From assembly GCF_033153115.1 (NCBI RefSeq), contig NW_026889792.1:4030001-4094000 (forward strand): a stretch of DNA of 64,000 bases. Reading direction: 5' to 3'. The number at the start of each line of letters is the position of its first letter. Within the stretch, counting starts at the first letter, position 1. The DNA comes from Saccostrea echinata (taxonomy: Eukaryota). The notes below the pieces were generated by a model. The model saw nothing but the letters and a program-made list of their open reading frames with translations, had not been told where the DNA came from and made no database searches. A program made the translations under genes and the position numbers. Positions 44,393 through 50,851 of this stretch are shown piece after piece.

Positions 44393-45816
44393 TTACTCTG
44401 CTTCATCCTGGAGCATGGAGTATTCTACATCATACTTCTTACATTCATTTTTCTTACTCCCTGAGAAATATTTACGAGCAAAACTAAAAGTAACAACCAG
44501 AACAAGTAACAAGCCAATAAAGAAAAAAATAAGCATGAACACAGATCCTGGCCAAGCCGCATCTCTGTAATTAACCTCACTGTGGACGTCAATACCCCAT
44601 ACATCATCTAACAGACTGAAAGTTTTAGTGGAGTCATGTCCTATCCCTCCAACTACATACAGTTCGTTCCATGTATTGAAAGACATGGCATCTGTTCGAC
44701 AGCTTGGATATCTTCCATTATCAAATTCATTGTCTGCTGAACCGTAACTTCCCGGGTCACTGGCTCTGTCAGATCCACCCATCCATGACCACATCTTATA
44801 GTCAAGGTCAAAGTACCAGAGGTCATTCAGAATGACATCTGGAACTTCATCAGAGATTGTCCTGGGGTCTGAAGAGGCCCCCTCTCCTCCAAACATCCAC
44901 AAGTGCCCCTCACTATCAGTCCAATGAATTGCTCCCCTCCGACATCCTGGAATATTTTTTTCATTTGCCATGCCTTTTTTGCCATAATAACCTGCCAAAC
45001 ACTTATTCGGATCCCCCATTATTTTCACCCATGCATTTTTCTTGCAGTCAAAATTCCACAGATCAGTGGAAAATCCTGAATTGTGATGAGAATCCACTTT
45101 GTTTTTGGTTTGCGTGTTTCCAGAAAACATGTACAGCTGTTCATTGTGGCCAACCCAAGCTGTTGCACCACTACGACCTGCTGGGTACGTTATCTGTGGA
45201 CGGATGATTCCTTTTCTGTGAAGTTCTGAGGAGAGTTTCTCTTGCCTCCAATTAAGATCAATAAGGCTGTATTCCCACATATCATCATACTGGTCCAAAG
45301 TCTCAGAAATGCCTCCAAAAAGCATCATTTTTGTCTGCATACACCACACAACAGCATCAGCTCTTGGATCAGGGGACTCTCCAATGCTCTCGTTTCTCAG
45401 ATTCTTTAACATTTCTGACAATGGAAGCCACTCTTTTTTCTTGAATACAAATACCCAGGTGTCTCCAAGCACCTGTTTATCCTTATTCATCCCCCCAAAC
45501 ACAACAATTAGTGTCCCAGGCACCCCGCACATTGATGCATACCTCCTTGGAACAGGTGCCCTGTTCTTATTTTTGGAAGATATATCTAAACTTTCAGACC
45601 CAGGATGTTCCAAAGTCCACTTTCTTTCCCTAACATTATATTTCCATAGATCATTTTTCATGGATGGTCGTCCATTATATATACCCTTTCCGCCAAACAC
45701 CCAAGTATTGAAAACATCTTCCTGCCAAAACGAACTTCCTCCCCGGCCACCAATGGAAGTCTTGGAGGGTTCCTGATTACCACGGCTATTTCCAAAGGCC
45801 CATCTAAATCTAATGC
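44393..45816 (-). CDS. Uncharacterised type I membrane kelch/galactose-oxidase-like beta-propeller protein, exon 2/2
   Basis: About six kelch repeats (xFGG...NDLWxY/F...W), TM segment SVFMLIFFFIGLLLVLVVTFSFA followed by RK, short tail ending YSMLQDEAE; tttcAG acceptor, phase 1. Confidence 0.88.
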
Positions 45817-46829
45817 CTGAAATAAAAATTTAAAAGTTATTTTTCTTTCTTGAACTTACATGTAAGCTAGCCTTTATAAACCTCTTTATTTTTCTTCGTT
45901 GAACTTACATGTAAGCCTTTGTAAACCTCTGAAGTTCTAAATCAGACTAGCACACTGTGAACAGGTATGCTTTATGCCTTTAATGATTAACTGCATCCCT
46001 TTTGTTCTTGAAAAGAATGTTTTTAAAAAGATTTTTCCTATATATTCCTATGGGAAACTTTGAACTCATACTGTGGCTCCAACCTAGGCCTGGGGGGGGG
46101 GGGGGGCATTTGATTTAAATAAAACAGTCTTCAGAACCAATAGCCAAACTCCCTTCCTCTCTCAGACACCTCTGCAATAGGGGCATTTGTCAAGATTTTT
46201 GACATAAAATATAATATTTAAAGGAACTGTGTGCTACACTTTAATGTCTATGCTGTTGTACACTTCTTCTAAAACAAGTTTGGATAAATAAAACATCTAG
46301 AATTTATGTCAAGTAATTTTAATTTGTATATTTTTCTTTGAATTATACAAGAATTTTCATCAAGCTTTATCGTGTTTATTTAGCTATTCACAAGGTTGTC
46401 CGTAAGACCCTGGGGGCCAGGGATGGGGTAATTGAAATGAGTAATTGTAATTTACTGTATCTGTGTGGTCACAAATCAATTGCTTTAGATAGCCCCAGAA
46501 CTTTGGGAACTTTCAGTACAAAGTCTCTCAAGGAGATGCAGCTTGAATGATGAGCAATTTAAATTACACTGCATTGTTTTCAGAAGAGTATAAATTTTAA
46601 CACTATCACTGCACCAAGGTGCAACTTTTTGTACATGCTGAAAAAATAACACATTTTAAGACAAAAAGTGTGATAAAATAGCTAAATCAAGCTATTCTGA
46701 ATAGCTTAATAAAGCTTTATAGCTAATTCAAGCTAAATAGCATAATCAAGAGACTTTGTCGGACCACAGGGGCTTGCTCCCAGCATGTGTAATAATTATT
46801 TATTTAAAAAGTAATACACAAAATCAAAA

Positions 46830-49622
46830 AATTTTTACAGGGCCTGGATATCGAATATCTGAAACATAATCCTCCATCATGTTCATGTTCTTCTTCTCCC
46901 TACAACTATAGTCCTGCTTGACACGTTATTACTGGTGACGTAAATATAGTTAATAATGAGGACCTTAGATCACTAATTTTAAAAGGTCCTAAATTTAGGG
47001 AACCCCGATCCTTCAACTCATTACTGGCGTCGGAATTTCATAAATATTATGGATTCTGTAGAGGACTACGCCAGGCGATGGGCCAGACATGAAAAAGAAG
47101 ACCTTGACACTTTGTCAGAATGGATTAAATGTATCAGATGTATGTTAAAATCACACATTAAAAGATTGAGGGGCAATATGAGAACCATCTATCCTTCTGC
47201 ATTCAATAATCCAGAAGTGAAAATAGAATTAGATAGATTACATGATCAGTATGTACTGGTCCCTGCTGACAAAGCAGGTAACAACATTGTCTTTGTTTGT
47301 AAGGATCATTATATTAAATGTATTTTAGAGGAACTTTGATTTAATTCTACAAGTGGTAATCCAACTTATACTCGTAGTTCCCTTTCTAAGGAAGAAATTC
47401 TTCAAAATCATATGTCAGTTTTGAATATTTTTAATATTCCAAACAACCAAAATGAATTTGAATTACCATATTTATATTGGATTCCGAAACTTCATAAAAA
47501 TCCTTACAAACAAAGATACATAGCGGGTTCCAGTAAATGTTCAACCAAGCCTATTTCTTTACTCCTCACTAAGATATTAACAGTGGTGAAGGAGAAACTT
47601 CAAGAGTACTGTGCAACAATATATTCGAGAAGTGGTGTAAATCAGATGTGGATACTTAAAAATTCCAAGGAACTTTTGGAAAATTTGAAATCGCAAGATT
47701 TTACCAAAATCAAAAGCTTAAAAACTTACGACTTTTCTACTTTATACACAACCATTCCCCATGATAAATTAAAGTCCAGGCTTTTTGATATAACTGACAG
47801 CTGCTTTTTCAATAAAAATGGAACTCGTAAATATACTTACCTTGCCATTGGTCATTTGCAAAATTATTTTGTTAAAAAACATTCTGATTGTACACACAGG
47901 TACTCTGAAGTTGACATTAAAAACATGCTTGAGTTTCTGATTGACAATATCTATGTGGTTTTTGGAAACCAGGTCTTCCAACAATCTATTGGAATTCCCA
48001 TGGGTACCAATTGCACCCCGTTATTAGCAGACCTTTTTTTGTATTCATATGAAGCAGAATTTGTCCAAAATCTTGTACGTGAAAAGAAGAAAACACTTGC
48101 TGTGGCCTTCAACTCGACATTTAGATATGTCGACAATGTATTGTCAATTAACAATGGCTTTTTCTGTTCTTATGTCGATACGATATATCCTGGTGAGCTT
48201 GAGATAAAAGATACCACAGAGTCTGACATATCTGTTTCATATTTGGATATTTTACTTGAAAAAGACGTTAATAGTAATCTAACAACCAAGCTTTATGATA
48301 AATATGATGACTTTAACTTTTCAATCGTCAACTTCCCTTACTTATGCAGCAATATACCTTCATCACCTGCATACGGGGTATATATCTCTCAGTTGATTCG
48401 ATACGCAAGAGCATGCTCTACGTATGCAGGGATTTATCAGTACCTTCTCAGGGGCCGAAATTCGGCCCCATTCCCAATTGAAAATGAGTTAAATTTTTCC
48501 CAATTTGGCAGTATTTTTTCCCAACTGGTGAACAATGCTTTTATATTTAATTATCTTGGAAAAACACCAAGTAAAATTGTCAGATTGCCTGTAATTTTCC
48601 TATGTTTAACTAAATTAGCAAAGGTACAGTCATAAAACATGTTTAAAAAACTCCTTAAACATCGCCGACTTTTAATCCGAATTTCCTCTGTTTTTCTGAA
48701 AATGGTGATATTGCGTAATAATATAGATTTATTAAGTTATTTCCACATACTCAATTGATCTATGAGTGAATGTTAAGAACTGTAGGCATTATTTCAGATA
48801 GAAAACATATTTTCAATGCATTTTTACATATTAAAAGGGGACTTCGAGAAAATGTGTACTTAATTAGTATAATATTTTGCAGGAGGTTTATAATCTCCAG
48901 AAACAGATTCTAATGACCTAAATTGGAATTTCATACACACATGTACTACTAATATTTGTATAGATACTTTATACTTATTGGAGTCAAGTTTAGTTATGTT
49001 AGTCTATTATTTATAAGTTATCTTGTTTGATGAAGTTGGATCAGATTTAATTGTCTGTTTAGTTGCCCAACTTAGAGTTCATGCTGAAATGTTAAATGAA
49101 TTACACCTGAATACATGATGTAAGCAAGATTTTTTATTTTTCCCAATTTCATCAAATTGCCGATAAATTTTTCCCAATTCTCAAAAAATGGCGTTTCCCA
49201 AAATAGGCTGATAAATCCCTGGTATGTACAATTTCTAAAACAAGGTAATTTATTGACAAACAAGTTGATGAAACAAGAATATCAACTGTCTCGTTTAAAG
49301 TCATCATTTCGTAAGTTCTATGGTCAATACAATGACCTTGTCAGCAAATACAATTTATCATTGAGTCAAATGCTGACTGACGTATTTCATACTAATTGTT
49401 AGGCCATTATATACACACTGAATTGTCGACGGATTTTTCCGTTATTTCCCGATCATGACAAGGTGTGACCGGTCGGCAGGGGATGCTCACTCCTCCATGG
49501 CACCTGATCCCACCTCTTATGTTTATGTTTATGTTGAGGTCCGTGTTTGCTCTGCTCCTATTTTGTATTGTTTAATGGACTTTTAAGCTTGAATACTGTT
49601 CGTTATCTCCATATATTTCATC
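46830..49622 (+). mobile_element. 5'-truncated, inactive Penelope-like retroelement of the Naiad type (RT pseudogene)
   Basis: CxC linker (PSCSC, 46880-46888), PLE RT motifs PADKA, YWIPKLHK, YDFSTLYT, GIPMGTN, FRYVDN; ORF ends at 49402 with no C-terminal GIY-YIG; two in-frame TGAs, a frameshift near 47020 and a MITE insertion. Confidence 0.88.
48427..49221. mobile_element. MITE with 5-bp TSD inserted in the RT ORF (hAT5-like by TSD length; inference)
   Basis: 14-bp TIR cagggatttatcag/ctgataaatccctg and TSD gtatg; removing it restores ...ACSTYVQFLKQGNLLTNKL... Confidence 0.9.
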
Positions 49623-50159
49623 CTAAAATAGCATTTCTTAAATCACTTCTTCAATAATTATTACATGCTGGGAGCAAGCCCCTGTGATCGGACCTGTTTA
49701 ATGGGCTCAGTGTTGATGGTTCAACCCATTTGAAATCTTAGGCTGATCTATCTTAAGTCCTGGGCCAACCTTTTTGGCTGGGGTACGTGTCATTGGGCCT
49801 AAATCTCTGTGAGCTGAAGTGTAGTTGGGCTGATGTCTGGCATCCATATGGGGAAGAAGGGGTGAAAGGTGAACAAATTACTAGTTGGAATAATATGATA
49901 GCCATCTCCATTTTTTTATTTTATGTGTGTGTGGGGGGGGGGGGCATCATTATTACTAAGCATATCAAAGAGAGATACATTATTGCAGCTAAGTTCTGAC
50001 TTGAGGTATTAACAGTTTAAAATATATTTACAGGGCAACATTTAGCGAACTATAAAAGGTACAGAAAACACTGGAAAATGTAGTTTTCGCTCCATCAATA
50101 AATAGGGGAGATTAAAGTATGTATTGAAATCAAGGAAAAAGGTTTGTTATCTTACTTAC

Positions 50160-50241
50160 CTTTAACAGAAGAAGTTGTTAAATTCAACATAAATATTACA
50201 AACATAAAAGTTCTAAAGAAATTTCTGTCGCCTGTACCCAT
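50160..50241 (-). CDS. Kelch membrane protein exon 1 (signal peptide)
   Basis: MGTGDRNFFRTFMFVIFMLNLTTSSVKG; AAG|GTAAGT donor, phase 1 joins in frame to the 45816 exon. Confidence 0.75.
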
Positions 50242-50851
50242 TTCGCAATGTTAGCTGAACGAAATCTAAAAAGTAGAGGTATTCCGATCTTAAGCTCGAG
50301 AAGCATGCTAATTGGCGTAAAATGGTCCTAAGTTGTGAAATACTGATTTTTTTTTAAATGAATATTTGATTAAGCAAATAAATAAATAAATAAATAAATT
50401 AATTAATTGATAAATGAATTAATTAATTTGCAGTAAATTTTGAAAGATAATTGAGCATTCAAGGTTGTGCATATCCCTGGTTGTTTTATTCGTTCTTTTA
50501 AATCACGGAGCAACATTCCTGACATTTTTATTGCAAAATTTTGATCAACAGTAGCGTGTCAGACGGACAACCTATATATAAATCATTATCTAACAAGCGG
50601 GAAAAAGAGAAATATAGAATGAGGACGATTTTTTAGAAGAGAGAAACATTTAAGTTCCTGTTAAAGGGTCAAAAAAGAAATCTTTAACCCCCCCCCTTCA
50701 AAAAAAAAAATAAAAATAAAATAAAAGATTAAATTAACAATAAAAGAGGGGAGGGATGTATCAATATTGTTACACAATTTTTCTCATGAGAAAAAAAATG
50801 AATCCAATGTACATAGATAAAAAAAATCATATTTGTATAAGACAATCAAGA

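Follow-up and report, generated by a model that had tools for sequence, protein, structure and literature searches.

A predicted single-pass kelch protein of oysters has a propeller that groups with secreted bacterial kelch proteins and a conserved YxxPhi tail

A 64,000-nucleotide stretch of the genome of the oyster Saccostrea echinata (NCBI RefSeq assembly GCF_033153115.1, contig NW_026889792.1, positions 4,030,001 to 4,094,000; hereafter the window) carries, on its reverse strand, a two-exon gene for a kelch protein. The gene is a member of a real, conserved and undescribed receptor-like family of known fold. In profile scores and trees, its six-blade propeller groups with secreted bacterial long-blade kelch proteins and not with the kelch proteins of the host, and the only invariant feature of its short cytoplasmic tail is a YxxPhi motif. 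We find it somewhat more likely than not that the spliced gene encodes a type I capture receptor whose propeller belongs to the bacterial subfamily and which would be internalised and recycled through the YxxPhi tail.

Gene model and transcript evidence

The spliced frame of the two exons (Table 1) encodes 501 residues with no internal stop codon, and an in-frame stop lies four codons 5′ of the first ATG. The original prediction for this stretch comprised a two-exon gene of about 501 codons with a 50160/45816 junction, a signal-peptide exon, a propeller of about six blades, one transmembrane (TM) helix and a tail of about 27 residues, and each of these elements was borne out. Contigs from two of four runs (X1 and X4), belonging to two studies, join the exons exactly across the 4343-nt intron, and the X1 contig spans exon 1 as far as position 50260. 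Both runs behave as RNA, because they also skip the intron of a neighbouring WD40 gene; this nature is judged from splicing, as no listed run is recorded as RNA. The sequence encoded by exon 2 shares 99% identity with an S. echinata protein that is uncharacterised and whose database model begins 12 residues later. The earlier start codon is backed by the orthologues of three other oysters, which begin with Met-Gly followed by a hydrophobic stretch, and a signal peptide is likely from the hydropathy and these orthologous N-termini.

A second genome copy of the gene is found on another contig. Collinearity between this contig and the window extends for ∼54 kb, and most blocks share 90-99% identity. 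The exon-2 frames of the two copies differ in 11 codons, five of which change the residue. On the basis of this collinearity, the two copies are interpreted as alleles, and gene duplication was rejected. Contamination and a pseudogene were also rejected, because the gene undergoes splicing, is surrounded by oyster genes, occurs on both haplotypes and has a GC content at third codon positions of 0.40, close to the 0.36 of the WD40 neighbour. The window contig resembles an uncollapsed haplotype of contig C2 (G000:C2:19704573-19757844), and the gene counts of the assembly may be inflated.

Overall structure of the protein

Seven Pfam kelch-type models exceed their cut-offs on the 501-residue protein. 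The same scan found no CUB, EGF, PSI or BTB domain, in line with the predicted lack of the CUB, EGF and PSI domains of attractin and MEGF8. An AlphaFold2 model built with 14 sequences (mean predicted local distance difference test score of 82.8) folds into six four-stranded blades and one C-terminal helix, and the first N-terminal strand closes the propeller. Kelch proteins lead both fold searches with this model; together with the Pfam matches and the six modelled blades, these top matches assign the protein to the kelch superfamily. The TM position is hydrophobic in all 24 aligned family members, and a type I topology is predicted.

Residues Cys112 and Cys174 (P0003 numbering), which lie on adjacent blades, are invariant in 24 of 24 members, and Asn157, which stands in a sequon, is nearly invariant across the family. 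The cysteine pair, which may form a disulfide bond, and the sequon fit an exoplasmic domain. Propeller conservation peaks on blades 5 and 6 and includes two residues of the blade-6 loop, His409 (22 of 24 members) and Asp410 (24 of 24).

A conserved sorting motif in the cytoplasmic tail

A YxxPhi motif is located at one aligned tyrosine in all 24 family members, 11-23 residues past the TM window. Thirteen members share less than 60% mutual identity, and all 13 of them retain the motif. The remaining tail is only 16% identical in this set, compared with 39% for the propeller; the TM helix is also poorly conserved (25% identity). Shuffling of the tails gives a joint chance of motif retention of ∼1e-8, a figure that is overstated since the sequences are related. 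This pattern of retention indicates that the YxxPhi motif, which was part of the original prediction, is under selection. YxxPhi motifs bind the mu subunits of adaptor protein (AP) complexes. A motif that is ∼20 residues from the membrane and stops short of the C-terminus is typical of endocytosis and cycling between the trans-Golgi network (TGN) and endosomes, not of lysosomal membrane proteins. The tail of ∼27 residues is too short for a signalling domain, and its single invariant feature points to an intracellular role in being sorted rather than in signalling.

The family in bivalves and gastropods

Named orthologues were identified in nine other bivalve and gastropod species besides Saccostrea: the bivalves Crassostrea virginica, Magallana gigas/C. 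angulata, Ostrea edulis, Pinctada imbricata, Potamilus streckersoni and Sinanodonta woodiana, and the gastropods Haliotis cracherodii, H. rufescens and Physella acuta. Five further sequences (P0038, P0045, P0388, P0390 and P0391) form a sister clade to the mollusc-containing group, and two clusters of this sister set hold 84 and 365 members; our guess is that the hosts belong to a deeper animal phylum. Four genomic loci of relatives (L128, L129, L130 and L141) resemble the oyster gene in that a phase-1 acceptor lies a few codons from the first propeller strand and the body is intronless.

Two orthologues are named 'kelch domain-containing protein 4' and '10-like' in databases, and these KLHDC-type names look like best-hit labels. 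To our knowledge, attractin and MEGF8 are the known extracellular kelch proteins of animals. The present family would be a separate extracellular lineage in bivalves and gastropods that databases hide under 'uncharacterised' or a misleading KLHDC name. No title or beginning of an abstract among the papers listed, in a search of the literature outside subscription papers and supplements, describes the family, and six gene or protein identifiers led to no paper; supplementary tables of horizontal gene transfer or expression may name its genes.

Kinship with bacterial long-blade kelch proteins

The best matches beyond the family are repeat proteins of bacterial type. In the protein search, a named Aminicenantales protein scores 238 bits, whereas the top named eukaryotic match that is not a family member reaches 43 bits. 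These relatives constitute an undescribed long-blade kelch subfamily, which is defined here from alignment A4. Six blade motifs are present in 14 of 15 short bacterial-type members (the other has five and a double gap); the median blade period is 73 residues, and these members begin with the same closing strand as the oyster protein. A hidden Markov model (HMM) of the bacterial six-blade unit assigns 187.6 bits to the oyster protein and at most 37.4 bits to open reading frames of 28 other oyster kelch loci. An oyster MEGF8-like exon with EGF and kelch sequences (G000:C4:5868064-5869254, L056:1108-2298) serves as an extracellular kelch control and scores 13.3-17.4 bits. A bacterial query gives five matches in the oyster genome, four of which fall in the two copies of the propeller gene.

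When the blades are scored singly and the long loops are omitted, blades 1, 4, 5 and 6 favour the bacterial model in 18, 18, 19 and 19 of 19 sequences, respectively, and held-out eukaryotic control blades choose the eukaryotic model in 17 of 17 cases. A reverse blade test is in agreement. The Atlas model of the Physella orthologue has mostly bacterial clusters as neighbours in 10 of 10 rows, with template-modelling scores of 0.70-0.77; all scores in the Atlas feature searches are below 0.9, and they serve as leads only. A solved structure of the bacterial subfamily was not found, the top PDB score of its profile being 47 bits.

The bacterial-type family is large, with 3,231 representatives at E values up to 1e-30, animal members included, in a search dominated by long repeat proteins, and it spans several phyla. 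The bacterial relatives carry export signals and immunoglobulin (Ig)-like or type IX secretion tails, and this export together with the Ig-like stalks suggests that they bind ligands at the cell surface. A Bdellovibrio protein of 1725 residues (L046:3579-8756) consists nearly throughout of ∼24 long blades, apparently in four six-blade units. Tblastn against plasmids and phages gave no match. A viral contig with terminase-like frames, as judged by eye, bears a bacterial-type long-blade kelch gene (L050:127-2130), and viral carriage is a possible route of spread for the bacterial-type gene. According to PMC9218822, propellers including kelch have arisen time and again by amplification of one blade, for the most part in bacteria. 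Such amplification accounts for the regularity of the bacterial repeats, and regularity alone is no proof of age.

The oyster and bacterial long-blade proteins share the exported six-blade unit with its N-terminal closing strand, the Trp residue that ends strand A, the WxW of strand D and the long Gly-Tyr-Gly loops before blades 5 and 6. The bacterial proteins, found in Acidobacteriota, Bacteroidota, Pseudomonadota, Bdellovibrionota and others, are lipoproteins and type IX secretion cargo, and their blades are near-identical 73-residue repeats; proteins with several units and Ig-like tails are common. In contrast, the animal protein is asymmetric: the long loop is gone from blades 1-4, invariant Cys residues have been gained, and a TM helix and a YxxPhi tail are present. 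Its blade spacings are 66, 60, 64, 78 and 80 residues and thus depart from the period of ∼73 residues that characterises all blades of the subfamily.

Phylogenetic placement

The trees exclude P0072 and 16 bacterial rows in which no run of six consecutive blade anchors could be identified. The careful trees use core columns only, and kelch proteins with short blades from prokaryotes make up a fourth group in them. In these trees, the animal sequences are joined to the long-blade sequences with support of 98/97 (39 rows) and 100/100 (37 rows), and the animals form one clade (98/97 and 98/99). The oyster MEGF8-like exon lies outside the clade of animal and long-blade sequences. The approximately unbiased (AU) test rejects a topology that unites the animal family and the remaining kelch proteins of eukaryotes (p=0.002), which the original prediction had named as an outcome that would refute it. 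The bacterial homologues of the propeller are nearer than those of the host lineage, and the gene is embedded in the genome, spliced and expressed. Horizontal transfer from bacteria is likely but not proven.

Several observations weigh against a bacterial source for the propeller. A quick 64-row tree that includes the loops leaves the animal family without a resolved position at its base, where other eukaryotic kelch proteins also attach, and a starred branch parts the animals and these proteins from the bacteria. Of all the results, this tree speaks most strongly against the bacterial reading, although long branches and the shared loss of loops may draw the eukaryotic rows together in it. In the core-only trees, the bacteria hold one side with support of only 75/86 (39 rows) and are weakly paraphyletic with 37 rows, and the nesting of the animal clade inside the bacteria is unsupported: the clade stands beside them in the former tree and weakly inside them in the latter. 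The AU test does not reject a single clade of all eukaryotic members (p=0.31), and intron-bearing, eukaryote-like relatives with bacterial-type long blades exist. The bacterial family is also patchy; among 61 Bacteroidota genomes, it occurs in a single one, the chosen centre. With such weak or sister placements, the old horizontal transfer that had been proposed is not established.

The AU result for one eukaryotic clade, the intron-bearing relatives with long blades and the rarity in sampled Bacteroidota speak for a receptor that was vertically inherited from an old eukaryotic long-blade kelch lineage and often lost, with the bacterial family as sister group or amplified from a eukaryotic blade. 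The protist-like sequence P0068 also speaks for such descent, as it is the top match to blades 1-3 (89 bits) and the sister of the animals with support of 87/83 in the 37-row tree; the grouping is absent from the 39-row set, yet it is not rejected there (p=0.36). The eukaryote-like loci L153, L155, L156 and L157 carry full long kelch blades, one per exon, with phase-1 GT..AG introns and a signal peptide. However, the intron-rich genes L153-L157 join a bacterial-type lipoprotein (97/89), apart from the animals, and L153, L155, L156 and L157 possibly reflect an independent uptake followed by amplification of a blade with its intron. Moreover, bacterial-type members of several phyla dominate the matches, and named members from vertebrates, insects, nematodes, fungi or plants are absent from the matches listed, in a lossy search that missed 3 of 14 of its own queries. 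Vertical inheritance is on balance rather unlikely, and an origin of the propeller in bacteria, probably older than the molluscs and possibly older than the animals, is moderately probable.

The predicted resemblance to bacterial kelch repeats held for blades 1, 4, 5 and 6 but failed for blade 2 and ended in a tie for blade 3. All 19 sequences prefer eukaryotic models for blade 2, and no more than 6 of the 19 prefer the bacterial model for blade 3. In addition, the family profile matches human LZTR1 with 107 bits across the N-terminal half (profile positions 35-230). Both points run counter to a wholly bacterial propeller and would suit a chimera in which blades 2 and 3 of a eukaryotic KLHDC/LZTR1-type kelch protein were recombined into a bacterial-type propeller. 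The margins in the reverse blade test are nevertheless small, with 33 (eukaryotic) versus 29 bits for blade 2 and 43 (bacterial) versus 36 bits for blade 3, and the broader eukaryotic models may simply suit diverged blades. Such a chimera is the least probable of the accounts considered.

Comparison with known kelch proteins

In the PDB, the oyster model matches LZTR1 best (Z-score of 35.7, root-mean-square deviation (rmsd) of 2.6 over 308 aligned residues), followed by KLHDC3 (Z 35.4) and YjhT/NanM (Z 31.1, rmsd of 2.5 over 292 aligned residues), with sequence identities of 18-21%. The cytosolic kelch adaptors LZTR1 and KLHDC2/3/10 thus have the same six-blade kelch fold. They differ from the oyster protein, which has a likely signal peptide, a TM helix and no BTB domain and shares at most 22% identity with them. 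Membership of the KLHL/KLHDC proteins was rejected on account of the conserved hydrophobic N-terminus, the TM helix and the lack of BTB.

NanM/YjhT is likewise an exported six-blade kelch propeller, but it has shorter blades and is soluble. The NanM/YjhT models give the oyster protein 44 and 39.6 bits against cut-offs of 256.35 and 416 bits, respectively, and the Pfam NANM model gives 30.5 against 45. Membership was rejected, as these scores are far under the curated cut-offs. Bacterial long-blade proteins are often automatically labelled 'N-acetylneuraminic acid mutarotase', and no NCBIfam model matches the bacterial relative P0492. The mutarotase label that JGI gives to bacterial relatives looks like over-annotation. 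Galactose oxidase has seven blades, and its C-terminal domain contributes a copper ligand. Membership of this family (AA5) was rejected, because the oyster protein has six blades followed directly by the linker and TM helix and matches galactose oxidase with a Z-score of only 19.3.

According to PMC5792066, MEGF8 is a kelch-repeat protein of type I topology that is conserved in metazoans and choanoflagellates. Attractin and MEGF8 resemble the oyster protein in type I topology, a short tail and a kelch propeller outside the cell (PMC5792066). They differ from it in that the oyster protein lacks the CUB, EGF and PSI domains, is too short at 501 residues and belongs to another kelch lineage. No characterised orthologue emerged: the nearest relatives are uncharacterised, and the protein falls outside attractin/MEGF8, KLHL/KLHDC, NanM and galactose oxidase. 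In layout, the protein is analogous to the mannose-6-phosphate receptors and TGN38, which combine a luminal domain for binding and a single TM helix with a short tail that bears a tyrosine motif near acidic residues; their ectodomains are unrelated to the oyster propeller.

Proposed function and its alternatives

As a capture receptor, the protein would bind an extracellular or luminal ligand, either a glycan or a protein, through the propeller and AP-2 or AP-1 through the YxxPhi tail, and it would cycle among the surface, endosomes and the TGN. A binding surface would lie on blades 4-6, the most conserved part of the propeller, which retains the long loops; the peak of conservation on blades 5 and 6, with His409 and Asp410, suggests one binding site on that side. 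It counts against the capture receptor that the bacterial relatives are uncharacterised too.

The conserved His409 and Asp410 could also belong to a membrane-anchored luminal enzyme, mutarotase-like or hydrolytic, that is kept in the Golgi or lysosome through the YxxPhi motif. YjhT/NanM is among the fold matches, and many bacterial relatives bear the mutarotase label. This is quite unlikely, however, with NanM/YjhT scores far under the cut-offs, a bacterial relative (P0492) that matches no NCBIfam model, non-enzymes (LZTR1 and KLHDC3) that score higher by fold and an Asp that is a common feature of bacterial blades. Alternatively, the protein could act as a minimal co-receptor of the attractin/MEGF8 type, binding a membrane protein in cis and promoting its endocytosis and turnover. 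The layout of an outside kelch propeller, one TM helix and a short tail is alike, and MEGF8 and attractin down-regulate surface receptors (PMC5792066). On the other side stand the lack of CUB, EGF and PSI domains, the distance of the oyster's own MEGF8-like gene and the poor conservation of the TM helix, which together make a co-receptor improbable. The oyster tail also lacks what we take to be the MGRN1-binding motif of the attractin/MEGF8 type, a further point against a co-receptor.

The likeliest history of the capture receptor is an old uptake from bacteria. A bacterial repeat propeller would have been taken up in or before early animals, and a signal-peptide exon, the TM helix and the sorting tail would have been gained afterwards. 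The domesticated intronless propeller would have lost its symmetry and kept binding loops on one side. We consider it possible, at a little short of an even chance, that such a propeller was taken up before the molluscs parted from a deeper animal lineage and became an endocytic receptor, with the exon gained through the conserved phase-1 intron. If this domestication is true, bacteria would long ago have contributed to membrane traffic or microbe sensing in animals, and the family would offer a handle on a large uncharacterised family of bacterial surface proteins; if transfer holds, a non-enzymatic bacterial surface module would have been turned into a trafficking receptor. Either way, identification of the ligand would assign a first function to a large family of bacterial proteins, which is apparently mislabelled as mutarotase.

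Features of the window

Table 1. Elements of the propeller gene in the window, with the basis of each assignment
Feature	Position	Strand	Basis or detail
Exon 1	50160..50241	-	First ATG and predicted signal peptide; 27 codons and 1 base
Intron, phase 1, GT..AG, 4343 nt	45817..50159	-	Gap between exons 1 and 2
Exon 2, coding part	44393..45816	-	Entire propeller, linker, TM helix, tail and stop
Six-blade kelch β-propeller with N-terminal closing strand	44588..45814	-	Pfam, AlphaFold2 model, fold searches, alignment
Single predicted TM helix	44477..44551	-	Hydropathy of 3.14 over 19 residues; helix in AlphaFold2 model
YSML, YxxPhi motif in ∼27-residue tail, followed by acidic residues	44411..44422	-	Conserved Tyr in alignment

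The intron of the propeller gene contains, at 46983-48635 on the forward strand, decayed retroelement-like frames with motifs of reverse-transcriptase type and no Pfam match. The element is presumably Penelope-like, and many diverged copies are present among the run contigs aligned to it. An 808-nt stretch with terminal inverted repeats (48416-49223) is also located in the intron and is missing from the other haplotype; it is likely a polymorphic non-autonomous DNA transposon.

Two likely trafficking genes are found near the propeller gene. The WD40 gene at 28420-31436 on the forward strand, which we take to be WDR91-like, encodes an N-terminal CTLH-like domain, and its intron is skipped in three of three runs. 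A long acidic frame at 23401-25362 on the reverse strand has repeated DDFxDF-type and WAxF motifs and no Pfam match, and we assume it to be aftiphilin-like.

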